Below the pieces are notes generated by a model. That model made no database searches. It was not told the origin of the DNA and saw nothing but the letters and a program-made list of their open reading frames with translations. Source: an uncultured delta proteobacterium (GTDB lineage: Bacteria > Myxococcota > Myxococcia > SLRQ01). From it: a stretch of DNA of 64,000 bases. Position 1 is the stretch's first letter. The number at the start of each line of letters is the position of its first letter. Below are positions 51,805 through 64,000 of the stretch, one piece after another. Position numbers and translations under genes: made by a program. Location of the stretch: positions 576,001 to 640,000 of the forward strand of contig CAVSGM010000003.1 of assembly GCA_963727485.1 (NCBI GenBank), in the 5' to 3' direction.

Positions 51805-52104
51805 ATGCGCGACCTCCTGAAGCTCTATCCCCGCCACCACCCCGAGTCCGCCGGCCGTGTCCTCGACGGCGAGGCGGTGGTGGTGACCCCGGCGGACAGC
51901 CGGATGCACACCCTCAACGAGGTGGGCACCTTCCTCTGGGATTGGGCGGACGGGGCGCGGAGCGTGGCCGAGCTCGCCGAGGCGGTGGAGACCCGGTTCG
52001 AGGTCGACGCCCAGACGGCCCGGAGCGACACCGCGCAGTTCGTCGCCGACCTGGAGGCCCTGGGCATCCTGGTCCTCGACGAGGCGCCGGGGAGCCCGGG
52101 GTGA
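51805..52104 (+). CDS. PqqD family peptide-modification chaperone (stand-alone RiPP recognition element)
   Basis: GRVLDGEAVVV....MHTLNEVGTFLW..DG.RSV.E.......F.VD...A..D...F...L...GIL. Confidence 0.9.
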   Translation: MRDLLKLYPRHHPESAGRVLDGEAVVVTPADSRMHTLNEVGTFLWDWADGARSVAELAEAVETRFEVDAQTARSDTAQFVADLEALGILVLDEAPGSPG

Positions 52105-52246
52105 CGGGGCTCACGGTGGCCGAACGCCCGGGATGGTTGTCTGGTAGGCTGAACGCGGGGCCGGCGCCTGGGCTCGGAGGCGCACGGCTCGACCCGAGAC
52201 GGCGGACGGTTGGGGTGTCCAAGGCCGCTGGATGCACGGAGGGGCG

Positions 52247-55200
52247 ATGAGAAGCACCTGGAAGCACGCGGCTGCGGGCCTGGCCCTGGTGACGCTGGCC
52301 GTCACCGGTGGTTGCGACTGTGGCAAACAGACGAACACCTGCAGCCGGCCCACGGTGACCATCACCTCGCCGAAGGACGGGACCACCCTCTCGGCGGCCG
52401 ACGACAGCAACGCCAGCCTCGCCGGGGTGCAGGTGACCGTGAAGGCCACCACCGACACCTGCGTCCAGAACGACTCCACCGCCACCCTGGTGGTGAACGA
52501 CGACACCAACCTCGCCCGGTCGGCCTTCGTGACCGCCGGGAAGGTGAGCTTCCAGAACGTCACCCTGGTGCCCGCCGACGCCGCCGGCGACCTCACGATC
52601 ACCGTGAGCATCCGGGACAAGGGCACCGGGCTGGTGGCCAAGAGCACGGTGAACCTGGTGCTCCAGACCTCCGGGGGCCCGGTGTGCCGGTTCACGGCGC
52701 CCACCGACGGCCAGACCCTCGGCGCCTCCGACGACGCCGACGCCAACACCCCCGGCTTCCAGCACGACGTCACCGTCACCTGCGACACGGATCTCACCGG
52801 GACCCCGGCGAACCTCACCATCGACGGGGCGCCGGTGCCCTCGGCGATCTTCGCCGGGCAGACCGTGACCTTCCCCAAGGAGACCTTCTCCGAGGGGCAG
52901 AACGTCCTCTCGGCCTCGGTGGCCACCGGCGCCGGCACCTGGAACGGGAAGGCGAACGTCACCGTCGACACCCCCGCCTGCGAGATCCACCTCTCGCCCG
53001 CCGGGGCCAAGGTCTTCAACCTCGACGGCGACCCGCCCCGGCTCCCCGGGCGCCAGGCCATCGCCGACGCCGACGCCACCGCGCCGGGGATCCAGGCGGC
53101 GTTCACCGCCACCAGCCCCGACTGCCAGGGGAGCGACGCGGTGCTGGTGGTCGACGGCACCGACGCCAAGACGGTGAGCGTGACCGGGACGTCGGTGGAC
53201 TTCGGCACCGTGGATCTCCCGGATGGCACCGACGTCCCGGTGTGGATCGACGTGCGCCAGGCCACCGGGGGCACCGGGCCCACGGGTCGCTCGGTGACCC
53301 AGAGCTTCGTGGTCTCCTCGGCCCGGCCGTCGCCGGTGGTGACCTTCCCCGCCCAGAACGGGACCCTCGGGCCCGCCGCCGACACCGACGGCGATCCCTC
53401 CAACGGGATCCAGGCCGACCTCTTGGTCGAGGCGCCGAACCTCGCGGCGAACAGCAGCCAGACCGCAGGCGATGGCGCCCTCATCGAGGCGACCCTCACC
53501 GAGGTGTCCACGGGCACCCAGACCACCCTCACCTGCCTGGTGGGCGTGGACCACTGCGTCGACGCCACCGACCCCAACGTCTACCACCTGCCCCTGGACC
53601 TCGCGACCGACGGAGCCTGGAAGGTCACGGTGAAGGTGACGGGGCCCGCGGGGAACGTGGGCACCGCCGGCCCGGTGGACTTCGCCTCGAACGCCAACGC
53701 GGTGGGGGTCTCCATCGACTCGCCGGCGGCGGGGGCGAGCGTGAGCCTGGCCACCGCCGGGGTCACCGGGACCACGGTGCCGGTGCAGGTCTCCGCCCAG
53801 GGCGTGGCCGCGGGGGCGCCGGTGACGGTGCTGTGCACCGGGGCCACGGCGCCGGCCCAGGGCACCCTCGACGCCAGCGGCACCGCCACGGTCCCGGTGG
53901 ACTTCGGCAGCGCGCCCTGTGACGGGGTGCAGACCAGCTGCACCGCCACGGTGACCACCGGGGGCTCGGACCTCACCAGCGCCAAGGTCGACTTCCACGT
54001 GGACCTCACGGCGCCGACGCTGGCCATCGTGGCGCCGGCGGACGGGGCCACGGTCTTCGACTCCTCGGTCTCGGTGGAGGTGGTCAGCCAGTGCCTCGAG
54101 GACGGGCAGACCATCACCGTGACCAGCGACGGCGGCGCCACCGGGAGCGCCAAGGCGTCGGGGAACGCCGCGGTGGTGCCCCTGACCCTCCCCAGCGGCA
54201 CCCACGTGCTCACCGCCGCCGCCACCGACCAGGCGGGCAACCCGGCGACCAGCTCGCCTTCGAGCCTCACCGTCGACGCCAACCCCCCGAGCGTGGTCTT
54301 CGTGGCGCCCACCGACGCCCTGGTGCTCACCGGCGCCGACGACGCCGACACCTCGAAGGCCGGGTTCCAGCACGACGTGACCGTCCAGGTGGCCAACAAG
54401 CCCGCGGGCACCGAGGTGGTGCTCCTGGTGGGCTACGACGACGGGGGCCAGACCGTGTGGCGCGCGCCCCTGGGGCCGGTGGCCACCTCGGGGGCCAGCC
54501 TCAAGGCGACCTTCCCGGCGGTGGATCTCCCGGAGGGGGCGTTCCAGCTCGAGGCGGTGGCGACGGGTCCCTCGGGGCTCAAGGGCCAGAAGACCATCGG
54601 GCTCACGGTGAACACGGGGCTGCCCAGCTGCAACATCGTGGCGCCCACCGACGGCGCCTCCCTGGGGCTCCCCGCCGACGCCAACGCCAATCCCTCGGAC
54701 GGGATCCAGACCGACGTCCGGGTGCGGACCTCGGCGGCCGACGGCAAGACGGTCTCCCTGACCCTGGTCGACGGGACGGGGACCAGCCACACCCTCACCG
54801 GGACGGTGAGCGGCGGCGAGGCGGTGTTCTCCTCGGTGTCGTTCACCACGGCGACCGGGTCGCAGACCGGGCAGAACACCCTGGACGCGGTGTGTGACGC
54901 CGGGAGCGCCAGCCCCGGCCACGCCCTGACCAACCAGGTCGACGTGGACCTCGAGCCGCCGGCGGCGGCGCTGGTGACCCCGGTGGACGGCACGGTGTTC
55001 AACGCCGCCAGCCTCGACCAGAGCGCCGACCCCGGGTTCCAGGTGGACGTGGTGGCCAAGGCCACCAACCCCTCCAGTGGCCAGAGCGTGAAGGTGGGCG
55101 CCACCGGGACGTTGTCGGTGACCTGCGGGGGCCAGGCGCAGGCGCCGCAGACCACGACCTTCGACACCTGGCAGGGCCAGATCGAGGCGCGGTTCAAGGC

Positions 55201-58200
55201 GACCCTGGTGGACCAGCAGAGCTGCACCTTGAGCTTCGTGGCCACGGACCTCGCCGGCAACAAGAGCGCCCCGGCGACGGCGACGGTGGCGGTGGACCGG
55301 GTGCCGCCGACGGTGGCGATCTCGGCGCCGGCGGACGGGACCCTCTTCGGGGCGGTGGACGACGCCTCGGCGGGGACCGCCGGGTTCCAGCACGACGTGA
55401 CGGTGACCTACTCGGGGGTGGAGAGCGGTCAGCCGGTGCACCTGTTCTTCACCCGGCTCTCCGCCGGGGGCACTGCGGTGGAGGATCCCGGCAGCCCGCA
55501 CACGGTGGGGTCGGGGTCGCTGACCGGCTACACCTTCCCGGCGGTCACCTACACGCCGAACACCGATGACCAGGTGACGATCCAGGTGACGGTGACCGAC
55601 GCCGCCGGGAACCAGGCCTCGGCGTCGGTGGGGGTCACGGTGGACATGACGGCGCCGCAGGTGGCCATCACCCGGCCCACCAGCGGGGGCGCGTGCATCA
55701 ACGTGTTCAACGACTTCGACTTCTCCAAGCCGGGGATCCAGACCCAGGTGAACGTCGACACCTCGGGGGTGGCCAACGGGCTGCCGCTGACCTTGTGCAG
55801 CACCACGGGGACGGGGACGGCCTGCGGGACCAGCGGCTTCTTCCAGGTGGCCCAGAGCACGGTGAGCGGGAACACGGTGTTCTTCCAGTCCATCGACCTC
55901 ACCGAGGGCAGCCAGCAGCTCGAGGCCGAGAGCGCCGACCAGGCCGGCAACACCGCGGCCTCGGCGCCGGTGACGGTGTGCGCCGACTCCATTCCCCCGG
56001 TGGTCACGGCGCTGACGGTGCCCGCGGACACCAACGGGGACGGGTCGGTGAGCGCCGCCGAGCTCCAGGCGGCCGGCGGCCAGCTCTGCTTCGACGCCGC
56101 GGTGACCGGGGCCGACGGGCGGACCCTGACGATCTACACGAACAACCCGGCGGCCAAGACGGTGGTGGGCACGGGGACGGTGTCGGGTGGCGCGGTGCAG
56201 GTGTGCGGGAGCGTGCCCGAGGGCGGGCAGCAGATCACCGCCTATGTCACCGACGTCAACGGCAACCCCAACCTCAACGCCTCGAACCCGACCATCACCG
56301 ATCCGGCGGCGGTGATCCCGCTGGTGAAGGACACGGTGCCGCCGACCCTCACGGTGACGGCGCCCAGCGGCACGGTGCTCAACGGGACCACGGACGGGAA
56401 CACGGCGACGCCCGCGTGGGACGGGGCGTTCACGGTCGCGAGTGACGCCGAGGGCCAGACGGTCACCTTCACGGTGGACGGGGCCGCGGCGGGCACGGCG
56501 GTGGTCACGGGGGGCACGGCGAGCGTGAACGTGTCGCTCGGGAACAACACCAGCCACACCCTGGCGGCGGTGGTCACGGACGCGGCGGGGAACCAGAGCA
56601 CGGTGTCCCAGACGGTGCAGGTGGACACCACGCCGCCGACGGTGACGATCACCTCGCCGACGGGCGGGAGCTTCGTGAACACCAACTCGGTGGCGGTGAC
56701 GGTGAACGTGACCGGCTCCTCGGCGGGGAGCCCGCTGACGATCACGCGGACGGACACCTCGACCCAGCTCGCCAGCACCACGGTGGCGGCGACCCAGCCG
56801 CAGACGGTGACGGTGAACATCGCCGACGGGACGCCCACCCTGGTGGCCACGGCCCAGGACTCGGCGGGCAACGTCGGGACCTCGAGCCCGGTGAGCTTCA
56901 CGGTGAAGACCACCGGCTGCTCCATCGTGTTCGTGACGCCGTCGACGGCGACGGTCACCTGGAACGCCTCGGACGACGCCGACCCGGCGACGCCGGGCCT
57001 CCAGACGACCCTGGTCGCCGAGACCAGCAACTGCCAGGGCCGGACCATCACCCTCCTGAAGAACGGCACCCAGGTGGCGGCGACCGCCTCGGCCGCGGGC
57101 ACCGGCCAGGCCTCGTTCCCGGTGACCCTGAACGACGGCGAGACCGGGACCTTCACCGCCCAGATGACCGACCAGGCGAACAACGTCACCTCGTCGAGCT
57201 TCACCTTCACGGTGGACATCACCGCGCCGACCCTGGCGTGGACCGCGCCGACGGCCACCAAGCTCGCCTACGTGACGGCCACCAACCCCACGGTGGGCAC
57301 GGTGGTGAACGGGTACCTGCGCATCGCCGACACCGGCGCCGCGCCGGGGGCCCAGGCGTCGTTGTCCTTCGACGCGACGGGCGCGCAGGGTGGGACCCTG
57401 GTGATCACCCTGGGCGCCACCACGGTCTACTCGGCCTCGGTGACCGCCGACCCCCAGACCGTGACGCAGACGGTGACCCTGCCCCAGGACGCGGCGGGGA
57501 CCCTCACCGCGACGCTGACCGACGCCGCCGGGAACGCGGTCAGCGTGACCCGCGACGTCCTGGTGGACGTGGTGGCGCCGGCCGCCCCGACGGTGACGAC
57601 GTCACTGGTGAACGACCGGACGGCGACGGTGGGCGTGACCTGGACCGCGGTCGGCGACGACGGGGCCGCCACCGGCACCCCGGCGGGCTACGAGGTCCGC
57701 TGGGCTACGTCCCCGATCACCGACGACGCCACGTTCTCCACCGCGACCCTGGCGACCACCGCGGCGCCCACGGCCACGTCGTACTCCCTGACGCCGCTGC
57801 CGCCGCTGAACACCTACTCGGTGGCGGTGCGGGCCAAGGACGAGCTGGACAACATGTCCCCGGTGACCGTGGGGACCGACGTGGCCAGCCAGGCGAACAT
57901 GTGGACCGAGCAGCTGATCAATGGCGAAGGCGGGTACTTTGCCTTCGGCATGACAAGTCGAGGTGCAGACCTCAACCATGACGGCTACGACGACCTTGTC
58001 GTCGGTGCCTACAACTACACGGTCTCCAATCCGTCGTCTGGAACGGGGGCGGGCCGTGGCGCCGTCTACATCGTCTACGGGGGACCGGATCCGACCAATC
58101 TCACCGTGCAGAAGATCGTCGGCCAGACCGACGGTGAGAACTTCGGATACCGGATCGACACCGGCGACGTGAACGGCGACGGCATCCCCGATCTCATCGT

Positions 58201-59194
58201 TGGTGGCGCCGGCTACAACTCGGGCCAGGGTCGCGCCTTCATCTACTTCGGCGTGGACAGCACCAAGGGCGTGACCCAGATCAATTCCGCCAGTGCCATC
58301 GAGCTCCGCGGCACCAACGCCACCACCGGACAGTTCGGGCGGTCGTTCGCGGTCGTCGGTGACGTGAACGGCGATGGCATCCAGGACCTGGCGGTATCCG
58401 CCCGGCAGGAGGGGCCGAACAAGGAAGGCAAGGTCTACGTCTTCTACGGGCGCTCGGCGGCCACATGGCAGTCGGACGCCACGGCGAAGGGCTACCTGGA
58501 CACCAGCGATGCCAACCTGAGCTTCATCGGGACCACCACGGACGGCAACTTCGGCTACCGCTTCGGCCTCGCCGGCATTGGGGACATCGACGGTGACGGC
58601 AAGAGCGACCTGGTAATTCCGCAGTACTACACGGACCCGTCCAGCGTCGCGAGCAACAGCCTCTACGTGTTCCGCAGCTCGGACTTCCTGACCGCGGCCC
58701 AACCGGTGCCGGCGAGCGCGGCATTCCAGCATCTGGTGCCGACCGGATCGAGTCGCATCGGGTTCGATGGCCTGACCCTCTCACCGGACGGTACCTCCAA
58801 CTACCTCGTCGAGACGGACATCGCGGCAGCCACGGCGCGGCTCTACTCCATCGGGAGCAGTGGTCTGGCGACGCCTCCCGCCGAGTCCCTCGCCGCGCCG
58901 CCAGTCACGACCAACTACGGATACAGCGTCGCAGCCGGGGACTTGAACGGAGACGGCCGAACCGACCTCGTCCTGGGGAGCAATGGCTCGGCTACCAACA
59001 AGGTCTACCTTTATTTCAATCGCGGACAGAGCCCATTCTTCGGCAACGGTGCTCCTGATACAACTCTCCAGCGTACTGGCTTCTTCGGGACCAGCGTCTG
59101 GGTGGGTGACATCAACGGGGACGGCAAGCTGGACCTTGCAGCGGGCGCCGTGAACGACAATGGGGGCTTGGGCTACGTTCATATCTGGTACTAG
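52247..59194 (+). CDS. giant surface lipoprotein: tandem Ig-like repeats, FN3 domain, C-terminal FG-GAP beta-propeller
   Basis: Signal ending TGGCDCG; many TDxAGN / VDxxxP Ig repeats; WTAVGDDG..GYEVRW FN3; six clear DxNGDG..DL FG-GAP repeats; GGAGG RBS before the ATG at 52247. Confidence 0.88.
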   Translation: MRSTWKHAAAGLALVTLAVTGGCDCGKQTNTCSRPTVTITSPKDGTTLSAADDSNASLAGVQVTVKATTDTCVQNDSTATLVVNDDTNLARSAFVTAGKVSFQNVTLVPADAAGDLTITVSIRDKGTGLVAKSTVNLVLQTSGGPVCRFTAPTDGQTLGASDDADANTPGFQHDVTVTCDTDLTGTPANLTIDGAPVPSAIFAGQTVTFPKETFSEGQNVLSASVATGAGTWNGKANVTVDTPACEIHLSPAGAKVFNLDGDPPRLPGRQAIADADATAPGIQAAFTATSPDCQGSDAVLVVDGTDAKTVSVTGTSVDFGTVDLPDGTDVPVWIDVRQATGGTGPTGRSVTQSFVVSSARPSPVVTFPAQNGTLGPAADTDGDPSNGIQADLLVEAPNLAANSSQTAGDGALIEATLTEVSTGTQTTLTCLVGVDHCVDATDPNVYHLPLDLATDGAWKVTVKVTGPAGNVGTAGPVDFASNANAVGVSIDSPAAGASVSLATAGVTGTTVPVQVSAQGVAAGAPVTVLCTGATAPAQGTLDASGTATVPVDFGSAPCDGVQTSCTATVTTGGSDLTSAKVDFHVDLTAPTLAIVAPADGATVFDSSVSVEVVSQCLEDGQTITVTSDGGATGSAKASGNAAVVPLTLPSGTHVLTAAATDQAGNPATSSPSSLTVDANPPSVVFVAPTDALVLTGADDADTSKAGFQHDVTVQVANKPAGTEVVLLVGYDDGGQTVWRAPLGPVATSGASLKATFPAVDLPEGAFQLEAVATGPSGLKGQKTIGLTVNTGLPSCNIVAPTDGASLGLPADANANPSDGIQTDVRVRTSAADGKTVSLTLVDGTGTSHTLTGTVSGGEAVFSSVSFTTATGSQTGQNTLDAVCDAGSASPGHALTNQVDVDLEPPAAALVTPVDGTVFNAASLDQSADPGFQVDVVAKATNPSSGQSVKVGATGTLSVTCGGQAQAPQTTTFDTWQGQIEARFKATLVDQQSCTLSFVATDLAGNKSAPATATVAVDRVPPTVAISAPADGTLFGAVDDASAGTAGFQHDVTVTYSGVESGQPVHLFFTRLSAGGTAVEDPGSPHTVGSGSLTGYTFPAVTYTPNTDDQVTIQVTVTDAAGNQASASVGVTVDMTAPQVAITRPTSGGACINVFNDFDFSKPGIQTQVNVDTSGVANGLPLTLCSTTGTGTACGTSGFFQVAQSTVSGNTVFFQSIDLTEGSQQLEAESADQAGNTAASAPVTVCADSIPPVVTALTVPADTNGDGSVSAAELQAAGGQLCFDAAVTGADGRTLTIYTNNPAAKTVVGTGTVSGGAVQVCGSVPEGGQQITAYVTDVNGNPNLNASNPTITDPAAVIPLVKDTVPPTLTVTAPSGTVLNGTTDGNTATPAWDGAFTVASDAEGQTVTFTVDGAAAGTAVVTGGTASVNVSLGNNTSHTLAAVVTDAAGNQSTVSQTVQVDTTPPTVTITSPTGGSFVNTNSVAVTVNVTGSSAGSPLTITRTDTSTQLASTTVAATQPQTVTVNIADGTPTLVATAQDSAGNVGTSSPVSFTVKTTGCSIVFVTPSTATVTWNASDDADPATPGLQTTLVAETSNCQGRTITLLKNGTQVAATASAAGTGQASFPVTLNDGETGTFTAQMTDQANNVTSSSFTFTVDITAPTLAWTAPTATKLAYVTATNPTVGTVVNGYLRIADTGAAPGAQASLSFDATGAQGGTLVITLGATTVYSASVTADPQTVTQTVTLPQDAAGTLTATLTDAAGNAVSVTRDVLVDVVAPAAPTVTTSLVNDRTATVGVTWTAVGDDGAATGTPAGYEVRWATSPITDDATFSTATLATTAAPTATSYSLTPLPPLNTYSVAVRAKDELDNMSPVTVGTDVASQANMWTEQLINGEGGYFAFGMTSRGADLNHDGYDDLVVGAYNYTVSNPSSGTGAGRGAVYIVYGGPDPTNLTVQKIVGQTDGENFGYRIDTGDVNGDGIPDLIVGGAGYNSGQGRAFIYFGVDSTKGVTQINSASAIELRGTNATTGQFGRSFAVVGDVNGDGIQDLAVSARQEGPNKEGKVYVFYGRSAATWQSDATAKGYLDTSDANLSFIGTTTDGNFGYRFGLAGIGDIDGDGKSDLVIPQYYTDPSSVASNSLYVFRSSDFLTAAQPVPASAAFQHLVPTGSSRIGFDGLTLSPDGTSNYLVETDIAAATARLYSIGSSGLATPPAESLAAPPVTTNYGYSVAAGDLNGDGRTDLVLGSNGSATNKVYLYFNRGQSPFFGNGAPDTTLQRTGFFGTSVWVGDINGDGKLDLAAGAVNDNGGLGYVHIWY

Positions 59195-59202
59195 GTGAGA
59201 AC

Positions 59203-59364
59203 ATGGAAGAGTCGCGCAACAAGGAGCAGCGTCGGCGGTACGCGCCTCCGGCGGTCTCCACCGAGAGCCTGCCGCTGCTGCCGCTCGTGGAGTTGACCTC
59301 GGGCGGCACGGGCATCGGTGGCAACAGTCTGCCGAAGAAGCCAGGGCAACCACCCCCGCAGTAA
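59203..59364 (+). CDS. 53-aa putative RiPP precursor with lasso-type leader (not in ORF track)
   Basis: MEESRNKEQRRRYAPPAVSTESLPLLPLVELTSGGTGIGGNSLPKKPGQPPPQ*; AGGTGA SD overlapping the upstream stop; YxxPxV and T-x|G motifs. Confidence 0.7.
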   Translation: MEESRNKEQRRRYAPPAVSTESLPLLPLVELTSGGTGIGGNSLPKKPGQPPPQ

Positions 59365-59413
59365 CGCTGGGTGACGTCCGCGAGGCTCGCTACGTGTCTC
59401 CCGATCTTGAGCC

Positions 59414-60070
59414 ATGGACTGCCGCCGGTCCCTGGGGGCTCGTGCGGGTCGAGCGCGGTCGCCCAGACGTGGTGGACTGCGGATCGCAGTAGGCACCGCC
59501 AGACCAGTTGGAGTGGAGGTTTCTGGCGAACGGTACTTGGTGGCGCCCTGTCCCGATGGGGTCATGGGGCTGGTCCAACGCGCCATCCTGGCCGCGCATG
59601 TTGAATCGAGCGGGGGCTTTGTACTTCACGCCTCGGCGGTCGTCTCCGAGGGCGTTGACGCAACCCTCTTTCTGGGGCGGAGCGGGTCGGGCAAGACCAC
59701 GGTCTCCACCCAGGCGAAGGGCGCCCTTCTTGGGGACGACACCGTCGTCATCTGGCGCGGCGAGAGGGGCCTGGAAGTGGTTTCCACACCCTTTGTGAGC
59801 GATGGCGGGCGCTTGGCGGAGACACGCAGCGGGACGCCGCGCGCCGTGTGTACGCTTCGGTGGGGCACTTCGCCTCGGCTAGATCGCCTTGACGACCGCG
59901 TCGCGTTGCGGGCGCTGGTGGAGAGCATCTATCGTCCACTCGGTCCGACCCTCAACCTGGCGGTCGCCAAGAGCCTCTTGGATCTCGTCGGCATGACCAG
60001 GGCGTACCGGCTCACCTTCCCTCGCGAGTACCGCTTCGATCCATCGATTTTCGAGACCGAGGCAGGGTGA
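59414..60070 (+). CDS. HPr kinase-like P-loop protein (N-terminus uncertain)
   Basis: GGFVLHASAV, FLGRSGSGKTT, LLGDD, STPF. Confidence 0.8.
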   Translation: MDCRRSLGARAGRARSPRRGGLRIAVGTARPVGVEVSGERYLVAPCPDGVMGLVQRAILAAHVESSGGFVLHASAVVSEGVDATLFLGRSGSGKTTVSTQAKGALLGDDTVVIWRGERGLEVVSTPFVSDGGRLAETRSGTPRAVCTLRWGTSPRLDRLDDRVALRALVESIYRPLGPTLNLAVAKSLLDLVGMTRAYRLTFPREYRFDPSIFETEAG

Positions 60071-60081
60071 ACGTCGCTCCT

Positions 60082-61176
60082 CTAGAGAAGCAAGGGGAAC
60101 GGGATGGGTGCGCTGAGGGCTGACTCACCTGCGGTCTCGCGCGCCCAGCCCAGGGCGTCGTCAATCTCCCCGCCATGCCGCGACCGAAGCTCGGCCAGCT
60201 CCGTGGCCCTCTCCGTGCGTCCGTAGGTCCGTCCGGACTTGGCATGTCTCCCGAGCAGAGGGGCCAATCGCGTCTCCGCATCCGGGATCGCCTCCAGGCC
60301 GAAGAAGCTGGCCGCGGCGTCGACCGCGGCCCCGACGTCCTGTACCAACCGCTCGGTGGACAGCGTCCGTAGCCGGTCCGCTCCGAGCTTCGCCGAGGCA
60401 TCCCGAATCGCAGACATGTGACTGGTCCAGAGCGCGACCGCGATGCGGCCTGGAGGCATCTGGGGATGGGGCATCTCGGCGCCAGGGACCAGCGGCAAGA
60501 ACCCGCGCTCGAACCACGTGGCCCGTTGTCGGAGCCACTCACGGCGCTCCTCCGACTTGATGGCGGACGCGATGAAGGTGGCGGGGGAGGTGAAGAGGAA
60601 GATGCCCCGGCTCTCGGGCCGGGCACGGAAGAGCTGTTCCAGCCCGAGCGTCGCCGAATCGGACGCCTTGACGATGGTCGCTACCTGGCCGGTTCGGTGG
60701 CGCGCCAGGAGATGGAGAACCAGCCGCAGGGCCTCGATGGCCTCTTGGCGGCGGGTCGGCTCGCTCGCCGTCTTGGCGAGGGCCTTCACGGCGCCGTGGA
60801 GCCCCTCCGGTTCTCGGCGAGCCAGCGAGCGCGTTGTTGCCGCGAGGGCTCGAGACATCAGCGTGGACCCGCAAAACGCGTGGTGAAGGATGAAGTGCAG
60901 GGGGTCCGAAGGGGGCCTCGCCTGTGCGAATCGTCTGAGGAGGTAGGGGAGCGGTAGAAGGATCGCGTCTGGCGTCGCCTCTCGAATGGCCACCACGCCA
61001 TGGAAGGCCAGGGCGGCATGACGCGCCCAGTCTGCCGGCACGAAACCCATCGTGCCCTCCTCGAGGTCGACCGTGACCGGCTCGAGATCGGGCGACTCGA
61101 AGAGGTGAGCGAGCTGGGCGACCAACCGCTGCGCAGCTTCGGGGTCGTTGATCGCTGGACGGCCAGGCTTCTCCAC
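60082..61176 (-). CDS. sulfotransferase-like P-loop protein
   Basis: FILHHAFCGSTLMSRAL (PAPS 5'-binding-loop-like), REP, IVKAS, IFLFTSP..FIAS, RHAK; GTG start at 61176 assumed. Confidence 0.65.
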   Translation of the reverse strand: MEKPGRPAINDPEAAQRLVAQLAHLFESPDLEPVTVDLEEGTMGFVPADWARHAALAFHGVVAIREATPDAILLPLPYLLRRFAQARPPSDPLHFILHHAFCGSTLMSRALAATTRSLARREPEGLHGAVKALAKTASEPTRRQEAIEALRLVLHLLARHRTGQVATIVKASDSATLGLEQLFRARPESRGIFLFTSPATFIASAIKSEERREWLRQRATWFERGFLPLVPGAEMPHPQMPPGRIAVALWTSHMSAIRDASAKLGADRLRTLSTERLVQDVGAAVDAAASFFGLEAIPDAETRLAPLLGRHAKSGRTYGRTERATELAELRSRHGGEIDDALGWARETAGESALSAPIPFPLLL

Positions 61177-61252
61177 GGCGCAAGTGTAGGCGAGCACCCT
61201 CGGCGCCACCAATCGCTGGCTTGGCGTGCTAGCCTCGGGGCCAGGCAACTCC

Positions 61253-62081
61253 ATGGAGTCACACCTGGAAGGACTGTCGGTTGGCCGCTCCCTTTGGCCA
61301 GTCGCTGCGGGCGGTTCCCGGCTGCGGGCGGTCGGGCAATCCCCCAAGGTGGGCGAGGTGGTGGTCTATCGGCTGGGGCAGGGGCTGCGAGCACACCGGG
61401 TGCTGGCGGTGTCACAGGGGAGCCTCCTGGTCCGTGGTGACAACCCCATGGTGCCGCTTGAGCGCGTCTCGGCGGACCAGGTCGTCGGGGTCTGGCAGCC
61501 AGAGGGTCTCCGATCCCGCTTGACCCTCGGGGCCGTCACCGGCGGCGCCATCGGCACCCTGGCGCTGGCGGCCAGCCGCGTGGCGCGTGTCCGCGGCGCG
61601 CGGGCAATGGCGAACCTGGTGCCGAGGGCGGCCCCCGGCGGGCTCCACGTGGTGGTCGCCACCGAGGACCCCAGCCAGCTGGCCGTGAGCCTCGGTGAGG
61701 TGGGGCTGCTGCGTCCGTTTCGAACGACTGTCGAGGTTCAGTTCGCGTTGCTGACCGGGACGGGCTTCGCGGTGCTGGCTCGGGCCGAGCAGGGCACGGT
61801 AGCGGCACTCCGCGCGCTGCCTCAGGCAGATGCGCTGCTCCTGGGTATCACCGTGAAGCGCCGCTACCGCGGCCAGGGGCTCGGACGCCGGCTCCTCGAC
61901 GCCGCGCTCGCCGAGGCCCGCCGCCGCGAGAGCCCGCAGCCTCCTCGCCGACATCCGCCGCGACAACACCGCCAGCCTCCGCCTCTTCCAGGGCGCCGGG
62001 TTCACGCGCGTCGCCGAGGCCGTCCTGGTGGCCCCGGGCGACGGCGTGCTCTTCGACCGGTACGCTCTCGACCTCGGATGA
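61253..62081 (+). CDS. S24/S26 family peptidase fused to GNAT acetyltransferase; frameshift near 61934
   Basis: GRSLWP, GEVVVY, AHRV, RGDN; then V.RRYRGQGLGRRLL and, after a one-base shift, DNTASLRLFQGAGF...ALDLG*. Confidence 0.75.
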
Positions 62082-62142: not shown

Positions 62143-63123
62143 GTGGTCCCCGTGCAACCCGCCGCCCAGCCCCAGTCCTCCGATCCGGTCCTCTTCGCCC
62201 GGCGGATGCGCGAGAACATCGCCCGCGCCGTGGTGGGCAAGGACGACGCGGTGGACACCTGCCTCGCCGCCCTGGTGGCCGGGGGGCACATCCTCCTGGA
62301 GGACGTGCCCGGGGTCGGGAAGACCACCCTGGGGCGGGCCGTCGCCGCGAGCCTCGGGGTCAGCTTCGCCCGGGTGCAGTTCACCAGCGACCTGCTCCCG
62401 AGCGACATCGTGGGCAGCGCCATCCCCGACCGGCGGGCCGGGGCGACCCCGGGGCAGCTGGTGTTCCAACAGGGGCCGATCTTCGCCAACGTGGTCCTCG
62501 CCGATGAGCTCAACCGCACCACGCCCCGCACCCAGTCGAGCCTCCTGGAGGCCATGGCCGACGGGAAGGTCACCGTCGACGGGGTGACCCACCCGCTGCC
62601 GTCGCCGTTCCTGGTCATCGCCACCCAGAACCCCCTGGAGCACCACGGGACCTACCCGCTCCCCGAGTCGCAGCTCGACCGGTTCGCCGTGCGCCTGACC
62701 CTCGGCTACCCGGCGCAGGCCGAGGAGCGGCGGCTGCTCCTCGGGCGGGGGCTCGAGGAGCCGGTGGACGCCCTCACCCAGGTGGCCTCCGCCGACGACG
62801 TGGTGCGCCTCCAGGAGGCCGCCACCTCGGTGCGCGTCGATCCCAGCGTCGCCGACTACGCGCTCGCCGTCGTCGCCGCCACCCGGCAGAGCGATCAGCT
62901 CGCCGCCGGCGCCTCCACCCGCGCCGCCCTCGGCCTCATGGCCCTGGCGCGGGCCCGGGCGCTGCTCCAGGGACGCGACTTCGTCAGCCCCGACGACGTC
63001 AAGCGCCTCGCCCGGCCGGCCCTGGCCCACCGCCTGGTGCCCCTCTCCGGCGTCGATCCCAGCCGCGCCGAGACCGCCGCCATCCTCGACGAGATCCTCG
63101 GGCGCGTCCCCGTCCCCGAGTGA
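62143..63123 (+). CDS. moxR: MoxR family AAA+ ATPase
   Basis: LLEDVPGVGKTT, RVQFTSDLLPSD, ADELNR..P.TQS.LLE, ATQNP, LPESQLDRF. Confidence 0.95.
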   Translation: MVPVQPAAQPQSSDPVLFARRMRENIARAVVGKDDAVDTCLAALVAGGHILLEDVPGVGKTTLGRAVAASLGVSFARVQFTSDLLPSDIVGSAIPDRRAGATPGQLVFQQGPIFANVVLADELNRTTPRTQSSLLEAMADGKVTVDGVTHPLPSPFLVIATQNPLEHHGTYPLPESQLDRFAVRLTLGYPAQAEERRLLLGRGLEEPVDALTQVASADDVVRLQEAATSVRVDPSVADYALAVVAATRQSDQLAAGASTRAALGLMALARARALLQGRDFVSPDDVKRLARPALAHRLVPLSGVDPSRAETAAILDEILGRVPVPE

Positions 63124-64000
63124 GAAGCCGGACCGTGGAGGCGACGCGGGACCGAGGCCGGCGGGGCGGCGCCACCGGGCGACAGACGCGACGGCGCTTC
63201 GGCCGCATGCCCCGTACCCTCAAGGTGACCCGCGAGGGCCGGTACTACCTCGCCATCACCCTGGGCATCGGCTTCGCCGCCACCAACACCGGCAACAACC
63301 TGCTCTTCCTCACCCTGGGGATGCTGCTGGCGCTGATCATCCTCTCGGGGCTCCTCTCCGAGGCGGCGCTCCGGCGCCTCGAGGTCGTGCGGGTGCTGCC
63401 TCACGAGGCCCGGGCCGGCGAGCCCGTGCTCGCGGGGATCCGCATCGCCAACGGAAACCGGATGCTCCCCGCCATCGGCCTCGCCGTGGACGAGGTGGAC
63501 CCGGAGAACACCGAGAGCCACCCCGGCCGCCTCTTCCGGATCGCCGCCGGGGGCAACGCCCGCATCGACCTGCGCCTCGTGCCCACCCGCCGCGGTGAGG
63601 TCCACCTCCGCGCCGTCCGCGTCACCACCGCCTACCCCTTCGGGATCTTCGCCAAGACCCGGGAGTTTCCCCTGCCCGGGCGCTTCGTCGCCTGGCCCGG
63701 GCGCACCGAGGTCCACGTCGCCGGCGCCCGCGAGGGCCGGGGCGACGCCGGCCTCGCCCGGGTCTCCCGCGGCGGCGGCGAGGACTTCCACGGCCTCCGG
63801 GAGTTCCGTGAGGGCGACGAGGCCCGGCACATCCACTGGCGCAGCTCCCTTCGCCAGGAGCAGCTCATGGTCGCCGAGCGCGAGGCCCTCCAGGGACGCC
63901 GGGTCACCGTGACCCTGACCCCGGCCGCCGGCGCCGCCTTCGAGCAGGCCGTCCGCGAGGCCGCCGCCCGCGCCGAGGTCCACCTGGCCCGGGGCGACGA
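63120..64000 (+). CDS. DUF58 domain protein (partial, runs off the window)
   Basis: GTGA overlap with moxR; AATNTGNNLLF, YPFGIF, GEDFHGLREFREGDEARHIHWRSS. Confidence 0.88.
   Translation, partial: MRSRTVEATRDRGRRGGATGRQTRRRFGRMPRTLKVTREGRYYLAITLGIGFAATNTGNNLLFLTLGMLLALIILSGLLSEAALRRLEVVRVLPHEARAGEPVLAGIRIANGNRMLPAIGLAVDEVDPENTESHPGRLFRIAAGGNARIDLRLVPTRRGEVHLRAVRVTTAYPFGIFAKTREFPLPGRFVAWPGRTEVHVAGAREGRGDAGLARVSRGGGEDFHGLREFREGDEARHIHWRSSLRQEQLMVAEREALQGRRVTVTLTPAAGAAFEQAVREAAARAEVHLARGD

Follow-up and report, generated by a model that had tools for sequence, protein, structure and literature searches.

The question raised by this locus is what kind of product is made from a 53-codon open reading frame (ORF) at positions 59203-59364 (+ strand) of a 64,000-nucleotide (nt) stretch of DNA from an uncultured delta proteobacterium (Myxococcota; contig CAVSGM010000003.1, positions 576,001 to 640,000), which we refer to as the window. 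A first-pass annotation, made from the letters of the DNA without database searches, had pointed out a leader of lasso type in the encoded 53-aa peptide, followed by a core that could not form a standard lasso ring. We found that the ORF is a real, conserved gene. We propose, at a probability of roughly 0.6, that its product is a precursor from which a linear and probably phosphorylated ribosomal peptide is made, one resembling the Linear Polyphosphorylated Peptides (LPP) of Bacillota. The best reading of the locus is as a variant of LPP from Myxococcota that differs clearly in build.

The 53-codon ORF is a real, conserved gene

The ORF starts with an ATG at 59203 and ends with a stop codon at 59362-59364. 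It follows a giant ORF whose TAG stop codon occupies 59192-59194, leaving a gap of 8 nt (59195-59202). The short gap and the Shine-Dalgarno-like AGGTGA reported by the first-pass annotation were both found in the sequence; AGGTGA (59193-59198, + strand) overlaps the stop codon of the giant gene and ends 4 nt before the ATG. As the window is GC-rich (65-77%) and full of spurious ORFs, a chance ORF had to be excluded. The GC content of the three codon positions of the ORF was 0.68/0.55/0.85, which is the pattern of the neighbouring genes (0.60/0.51/0.83 for the last 900 nt of the giant gene and 0.69/0.56/0.75 for the kinase gene downstream). Codon-usage log-odds were best in the frame of the ORF (-0.5), with values between -13.7 and -72.8 in the other five of the six frames. 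A leave-one-out profile of 22 homologous peptides that did not contain the window's own peptide was then compared with the 67,692 six-frame ORFs of the genome, and the ORF ranked first (E 2e-4, 22.7 bits). When three peptides from the same family of bacteria were also left out of the profile, the ORF ranked second and was matched over its leader part only (E 0.78). The whole ORF was present without a difference in metagenome contigs from runs X1 and X4, its first 67 nt were covered identically in run X2, and a 53-aa protein with the single difference Q49R was called on another contig.

The peptide had been described as unannotated, and this was borne out. No Pfam or NCBIfam family matched the window's peptide, the peptide profile had no match in the PDB, six homologous peptides were without an NCBIfam match, and an Rfam search of 58900-59700 returned nothing at E <= 1.

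Conservation of the peptide was examined within Myxococcota. When 61 related genomes were searched in the manner of tblastn, one clear match (E 1.4e-6) came up, in genome G002, where a 57-codon ORF lies after a giant ORF and before a kinase-like gene. Syntenic homologues located after the giant gene were identified in three other genera of the same family. The kinase-like protein was also searched over 401 Myxococcota genomes and the 30 best loci were read; the count of 174 kinase-positive genomes among the 401 is an over-count, as many of the rows are PEPCK genes matched over the P-loop only. A small ORF with a Lys/Arg-rich stretch and a Y-x-x-P-x-[V/I/L/A] motif adjoins the kinase in 26 of the 30 best loci. 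In 24 loci it shares the strand of the kinase and lies upstream of it, and in two divergent ones (L038 and L054) it is found nearby on the opposite strand; the remaining four (L032, L045, L051 and L055) were without a small motif ORF. [quoted passage not shown]

Twenty-three peptides were aligned (alignment A4), with the peptides of L031 and L037 (a variant type with no clear start) and L054 (start unclear) omitted. The Tyr and Pro of the motif were invariant (23/23), V/I/L was found at Tyr+5 in 22 of the 23 peptides and Ser/Thr at Tyr+7 in 19, and basic residues stood just before the Tyr. The corresponding residues in the window's peptide are Y13-x-x-P16-x-V18 (59239-59256, + strand), as had been recognized at first reading. 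The C-terminal parts were variable, being Gly/Pro-rich, Cys-rich or equipped with a G-P-[FHE]-R-[DE]-x-P-R-R-like ending. Homologues with a conserved leader and a variable core, which the first-pass annotation had suggested looking for, were therefore found, syntenic loci included.

Outside this set, a profile search of a collection of 5.8 billion proteins gave 24 small proteins at E <= 10, seven of them at E < 1e-3; with the single peptide as query, the database yielded nothing but a near-identical copy of it. Where the database copies had a name at all, it was "hypothetical protein"; the locus therefore adds an unannotated small-protein family. A related-loci search with the window kinase alone found no relative, and the same search with the closer kinase alignment (A2) found four Archangium loci. 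One Archangium violaceum locus has the gene order of the cassette and three further Archangium records carry the kinase, so that the cassette is present in cultured, genetically tractable myxobacteria. A separate sub-family of metagenomic homologues of 55-56 aa (proteins P0008-P0022) has the same leader motif and a Pro-Arg-Arg-Ser end; a C-terminal Ser such as this one is the site phosphorylated by HprK-like kinases of the paeninodin type.

Predicted recognition, phosphorylation and leader removal

According to Popov et al. (Nat Commun 2026, PMC13381572), an LPP cluster encodes the precursor LppA, the discrete RRE LppB, the HprK-like kinase LppK, the SipW-type peptidase LppS, the nucleoside triphosphate (NTP) transferase LppN and the MsbA-like pump LppD. 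The precursors have a conserved N-terminal YxxPxVLxHQxIxFETxxS sequence and variable C-termini. LppB binds the YxxP motif, and [Y/W]xxPx[L/V/I/F/A] is given as the motif of lasso and LPP RREs. LppK polyphosphorylates core Ser3, which is at Tyr+18, and LppS (catalytic residues S29, H68 and D93) cleaves after T-1 only when LppB is present. No cyclase belongs to the system, and the product is linear.

The small ORF of the window, which is LppA-like, has counterparts of several of these partners for neighbours. A discrete PqqD-type RRE of 99 aa, similar to LppB and to B1 proteins, is encoded at 51805-52104 (+ strand; PF05402, E 3.6e-18). When a profile of nine syntenic PqqD homologues was compared with the PDB, it matched the lasso RRE TbiB1 (5v1u, E 2.5e-13), LppB (9x8z_B, E 2.5e-11) and PbaB1 (9x90_B, E 2e-10). 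D75 was the sole invariant residue of the nine-sequence RRE alignment and aligned with LppB D70, which forms a hydrogen bond to the Tyr of the leader in crystal structure 9x8z (PMC13381572). In addition, F79, L83 and I88 aligned with LppB F74, M78 and L83, and N38 and V40 with N33 and V35. The RRE is thus lasso/LPP-like and is predicted from these alignments to bind Y13-x-x-P16-x-V18 of the leader.

The gene following the small ORF (59414-60070, + strand) encodes an LppK-like P-loop kinase-like protein of the HprK/PEPCK fold, 218 aa as called. The P-loop region matched Pfam PEPCK_ATP (E 1.4e-9), and the Walker-A motif G-x-G-K-[ST]-T and the Asp that follows it are conserved. In Foldseek the AlphaFold model (predicted local distance difference test score 82.6) matched a PEPCK nucleotide-binding domain (E 4e-7, template modelling score about 0.5) and HPrK/P (E 2e-3). 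We propose that this kinase phosphorylates a Ser just beyond the leader. Ser33 (59299-59301, + strand), at Tyr+20, would be the best candidate, because all four same-family peptides have a Ser at Tyr+19 or Tyr+20. On this basis, and by analogy with the Ser at Tyr+18 of LPP, S33 is the better candidate than Thr3 and Ser9 of the core, which the first-pass annotation had put forward as possible kinase or sulfotransferase targets; the N-terminal Gly of that core and the Lys-Lys pair had been named there as possible GNAT targets.

Removal of the leader could be the task of a putative SipW-type signal-peptidase-like domain, LppS-like and fused to a GNAT domain, which is encoded at 61253-62081 (+ strand) by a gene that is frameshifted near 61929 in this assembly. 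Besides G001 and G003, two more loci have the fusion next to the kinase. Its GNAT part matched Pfam Acetyltransf_1 (E 2.3e-6). Its N-terminal ~110 residues are conserved in five loci and contain, in this order, a Ser (4/5, the fifth homologue having Cys), a His that stands within A-H-x-V (5/5) and an Asp (5/5). The G001 homologue (L056:7082-8008) is the one with Cys in place of the putative nucleophile Ser, and its C-terminal half has no Pfam GNAT match. By the proposed route, the SipW-like domain would cleave with help of the RRE and release a linear Gly/Pro-rich peptide of ~20 residues, to which the GNAT domain and a sulfotransferase-like enzyme may add further groups.

This latter enzyme is encoded on the opposite strand (60082-61347, - strand, start probably 61254; 390-421 aa). 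Its match to Pfam Sulfotransfer_3 is below the cut-off (E 0.0028), and the nearest ESM Atlas clusters carry Sulfotransfer_3 with a score of 0.98. None of the four same-family genomes G001-G004 has a homologue, indicating that the gene is a lineage-specific local addition and not a core part of the cassette. The suggestion that the kinase, GNAT and sulfotransferase-like neighbours are plausible tailoring enzymes is supported; lasso clusters are known to include genes for sulfotransferases and acetyltransferases as accessories (PMC8498205).

The likeness to LPP therefore consists of a discrete PqqD-type RRE with a Tyr-fixing Asp, a precursor with N-terminal YxxPxV and a variable C-terminus, an adjoining gene for an HprK-like kinase, a putative archaeal-type signal-peptidase-like domain, a Ser ~18-20 residues after the Tyr, and neither a macrolactam cyclase nor a B2 leader peptidase. 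The build is different, however. The locus is in Myxococcota, a giant gene for an immunoglobulin (Ig)-like/FG-GAP protein stands between the RRE and precursor genes, the peptidase-like domain is fused to GNAT, the core has ~20 aa compared to 45 in LPP, and in relatives of the locus genes for a YydG-like radical-SAM enzyme and for an M1 peptidase are often present as well, as optional parts. The authors regard LPP as restricted to Bacillota (PMC13381572). Our literature search found no paper on a Myxococcota form; the supplements of PMC13381572 (Supplementary Data 1 and Fig. 1, with the taxa of signal-peptidase hits) were outside that search and could bear on the restriction to Bacillota. A term search of two RRE-mining papers (PMC7470986 and PMC12710340) gave no mention of kinases. 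Phosphorylated lasso peptides of the paeninodin type also have a [Y/W]xxP leader with a discrete RRE and an HprK-like kinase, which acts on the linear precursor (PMC8498205). They differ from the present system in that the window offers no B2, cyclase or ring acceptor and its peptide lacks the terminal Ser used by their kinases.

Several results weigh against a phosphorylated LPP-like product. A look-up of RNA runs returned none that contains the locus. The extended leader consensus LxHQxIxFETxxS is not kept, and 20 residues separate the Tyr from the candidate Ser compared to 18 in LPP. LppN is not at the locus, as the only PF14907 gene is at C3:182 kb, ~450 kb away and split over two frames, and no LppD-like ATP-binding cassette exporter was present among 12 ORFs scanned at 45.4-64 kb; in relatives an EamA-type transporter gene occurs near the cassette instead of an exporter. 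The window kinase had no match at E <= 0.01 to TIGR04352, TIGR04355, TIGR04249 or TIGR04353. Its homologues were below threshold to HprK_rel_A/B and ScmC, scoring 16-36 bits with cut-offs of 125-200, and the PqqD protein scored 27 bits where PqqD_rel_X (TIGR04353) requires 35. The cassette thus shares with the HPr-rel-A system (TIGR04352/TIGR04353), HprK-related kinase B (TIGR04355) and SynChlorMet (ScmC/ScmD) the combination of a PqqD-family chaperone with an HprK-related P-loop protein but differs in these scores; the precursors of those systems are not defined.

The peptidase assignment is subject to similar doubt. The sole family match of the N-terminal domain was NCBIfam TIGR02228 (archaeal-type signal peptidase I), seen in three of five homologues at E 0.0052 and a low score of 16.7 bits (cut-off 51.85). 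Pfam gave nothing in four of the five homologues and S24 at E 0.12 in the fifth, the PDB profile search gave matches at chance level only, and Foldseek gave nothing at E <= 1e-3. In VIA-align, SipA (Z 5.4), Escherichia coli signal peptidase I (Z 4.7) and LexA (Z 4.6) came up amid numerous small barrels of SH3-like type that are unrelated. Two reading frames are also in question. A run X1 contig has one extra base behind 59476 and a G>A change at 59481. The extra base would leave the kinase frame open as far back as the small ORF's 3' end, and the longer N-terminus so obtained resembles the homologues more closely; no obvious ribosome-binding site precedes the called start at 59414, and the N-terminus of the kinase may be mis-framed. 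In the peptidase-GNAT gene, the GNAT C-terminus continues in frame +1 from ~61929 to a stop codon at 62079-62081, and a run X3 contig of ~91% identity is one base shorter at 61929, a difference that would restore the frame. The frameshift and the indel could be assembly errors or real lesions, the coverage being too thin to decide, so that the cassette could be damaged in this genome or the assembly could be wrong. Finally, radical-SAM genes and Cys-rich tails are found in many relatives, and therefore the ancestral chemistry may not be phosphorylation.

The giant FG-GAP gene and the cassette neighbourhood

The + strand gene order in the window is electron transfer flavoprotein (ETF) beta, ETF alpha, a metallo-beta-lactamase (MBL)-fold protein, the 99-aa PqqD protein, the 2320-aa giant protein, the small ORF and the 218-aa P-loop protein. 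These are followed by the minus-strand sulfotransferase-like gene, the peptidase-GNAT gene, and then MoxR and DUF58. The giant gene (52232-59194, + strand) encodes an Ig-like/fn3/FG-GAP repeat surface protein with Pfam matches to FG-GAP (E 1.8e-43), Big_13 (E 3e-23), FG-GAP_3 and fn3. The order RRE-giant-peptide-kinase is found in the window, in G001 and G003, in G002 up to the end of the contig, and also in other families. Of the 16 loci for which a wide context was read, 14 have an ORF of >1000 aa immediately before the small ORF. Besides the window's giant, five giants from other families were scanned, and all five had FG-GAP repeats. Upstream of the giant, Pfam confirmed a PqqD gene in the window and in six further loci. 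In relatives, the genes after the kinase encode radical-SAM enzymes, M1 peptidases, GNAT fusions, EamA transporters and MBL-fold proteins.

The recurrent position behind the giant, with a start 8 nt after its stop codon in the window, allows for another explanation, i.e. that the ORF encodes a small protein which stays unmodified and assists the giant FG-GAP protein, for example in assembly, export or regulation, and for which the RRE-like protein is only a chaperone. The C-terminal tail is partly weakly conserved, with the G-P-[FHE]-R-[DE]-x-P-like motif in one sub-group, and this speaks for such a partner. We consider this explanation unlikely, although no other alternative fared better. The constant neighbours RRE, kinase and peptidase-GNAT fusion are parts of a RiPP pathway, and in the loci that have no giant gene (G073 and G080) the peptide is still accompanied by RRE, kinase and radical-SAM genes.

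Returning to a modified, LPP-like product, the gene order suggests a functional link between the giant Ig/FG-GAP protein and the pathway. It is conceivable, although doubtful, that the (phospho)peptide, once matured, is dedicated to the giant FG-GAP protein, serving as ligand, cofactor or covalent adduct of an integrin-like beta-propeller. If so, this would explain why a giant gene lies inside the cassette across many genera, and a RiPP pathway of Myxococcota would supply one of the two halves of a receptor-ligand or adhesion module in bacteria. The linkage to the giant protein, which together with the peptidase-GNAT fusion, the optional radical-SAM and M1 peptidase genes and the lack of LppN and LppD at the locus makes up the distinct build of the system, is a concrete clue to a function at the cell surface, such as adhesion, biofilm formation or social behaviour.

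The genes flanking the cassette were also compared. MoxR (AAA_3) and DUF58 follow it in the window (62143-63998), and DUF58 also follows it in G003 (L057:923-1954). The ETF alpha and beta genes precede it in the window and in loci L069 and L072 of other families. These shared flanking genes indicate that the cassette is situated in a conserved chromosomal neighbourhood and not on an island.

Radical-SAM, decay and lasso explanations

The radical-SAM genes of the relatives suggest that the ORF could encode the precursor of an epimerised or cross-linked peptide, that the kinase-like protein has another role, and that the window's copy of the cassette has lost its radical-SAM enzyme. A radical-SAM gene lies right after the kinase in G002, G003 and G196. 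Its best match is the YydG peptide-epimerase family (TIGR04078), and this match is below threshold (E 1.7e-17 to 5.7e-9; 36-64 bits with a cut-off of 300). G073 has a radical-SAM/SPASM gene together with PqqD and kinase genes, and many family members have Cys-rich tails. The likeness to YydG-type epipeptide maturation is limited to the relatives, however, as neither the window nor G001 has a radical-SAM gene at the locus. The window's own genome holds no close homologue, only a generic 28% match over ~100 residues elsewhere. Moreover, the peptide of the window is without Cys, and across the examined loci the peptides are constantly accompanied by the kinase and not by the radical-SAM enzyme. 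We regard this explanation as distinctly unlikely, a little more so than that of an unmodified partner.

It could also be argued that the cassette is a decaying remnant in which the ORF is intact only by chance because the decay is recent. The frameshift near 61929, the possible indel at 59476 and the inserted sulfotransferase-like gene would all be in keeping with decay. On the other hand, a related contig is without the extra base at 61929 and another one has the extra base at 59476, such that both may be assembly errors, and the peptide, the RRE, the giant and the kinase core are intact with a normal coding signature. Decay thus appears quite improbable as an explanation for the locus.

A lasso peptide was considered and rejected. 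The YxxPxV leader motif, the kinship of the PqqD-type RRE with the lasso RRE TbiB1 as its best PDB relative, and the Thr at -2 with a Gly at +1 that this single sequence shows had made a lasso precursor with an unusual ring worth considering. The residues E30-L31-T32-S33-G34 are present as described at first reading, and the spacing of 19 residues from Tyr to Thr, the lack of Asp and Glu in the 20 residues from G34 to the end and the Asn as the eighth of these were likewise found as stated. The lasso cleavage pattern that had been read into them did not hold, however, as the T32 position is occupied by other residues in three same-family homologues (Gln in G002). PF13471, the B2 transglutaminase-like leader peptidase, had no match in the genome, which is 93% complete. 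PF00733, the Asn-synthase-like cyclase, was absent from the window and occurred only at C1:315 kb, on C2 and C11, and at C3:172 kb, a position that is ~460 kb distant from the ORF. With no ring acceptor in the predicted core and no lasso enzymes, the earlier statement that the peptide cannot form a standard lasso stands, and there is very little to be said for an unusual one. The chance of a fortuitous ORF in GC-rich intergenic DNA is just as slight: spurious ORFs are common in high-GC DNA, two longer antisense ORFs overlap 59203-59364 and no protein family is matched, yet codon-position GC and codon usage favour the frame of the ORF, its position and motif recur in different genera and families as conserved features, and it heads the leave-one-out profile search of the genome.

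Two further loci in the same genome are worth recording. The first is a second RRE locus (G000:C2:1830470-1831153; L082:7470-8154) in which a small ORF encodes a K-K-Y-x-x-P-x-I-x-S leader-like motif and a Cys-rich tail. This ORF has no kinase nearby; it starts right after a 643-aa Peptidase_MA_2-like ORF, is divergent from a PqqD gene (PF05402, E 1.7e-12) and was the top match of a 19-sequence peptide profile (E 0.022). The second is situated ~450 kb upstream of the window (L059, L079 and L080), where an Asn-synthase homologue (a 600-aa ORF; G000:C3:172308-173288) and the NTP_transf_5 gene split over two frames (C3:182154-182743) lie ~10 kb apart. This pair at C3:172-183 kb could be another peptide-modification locus.

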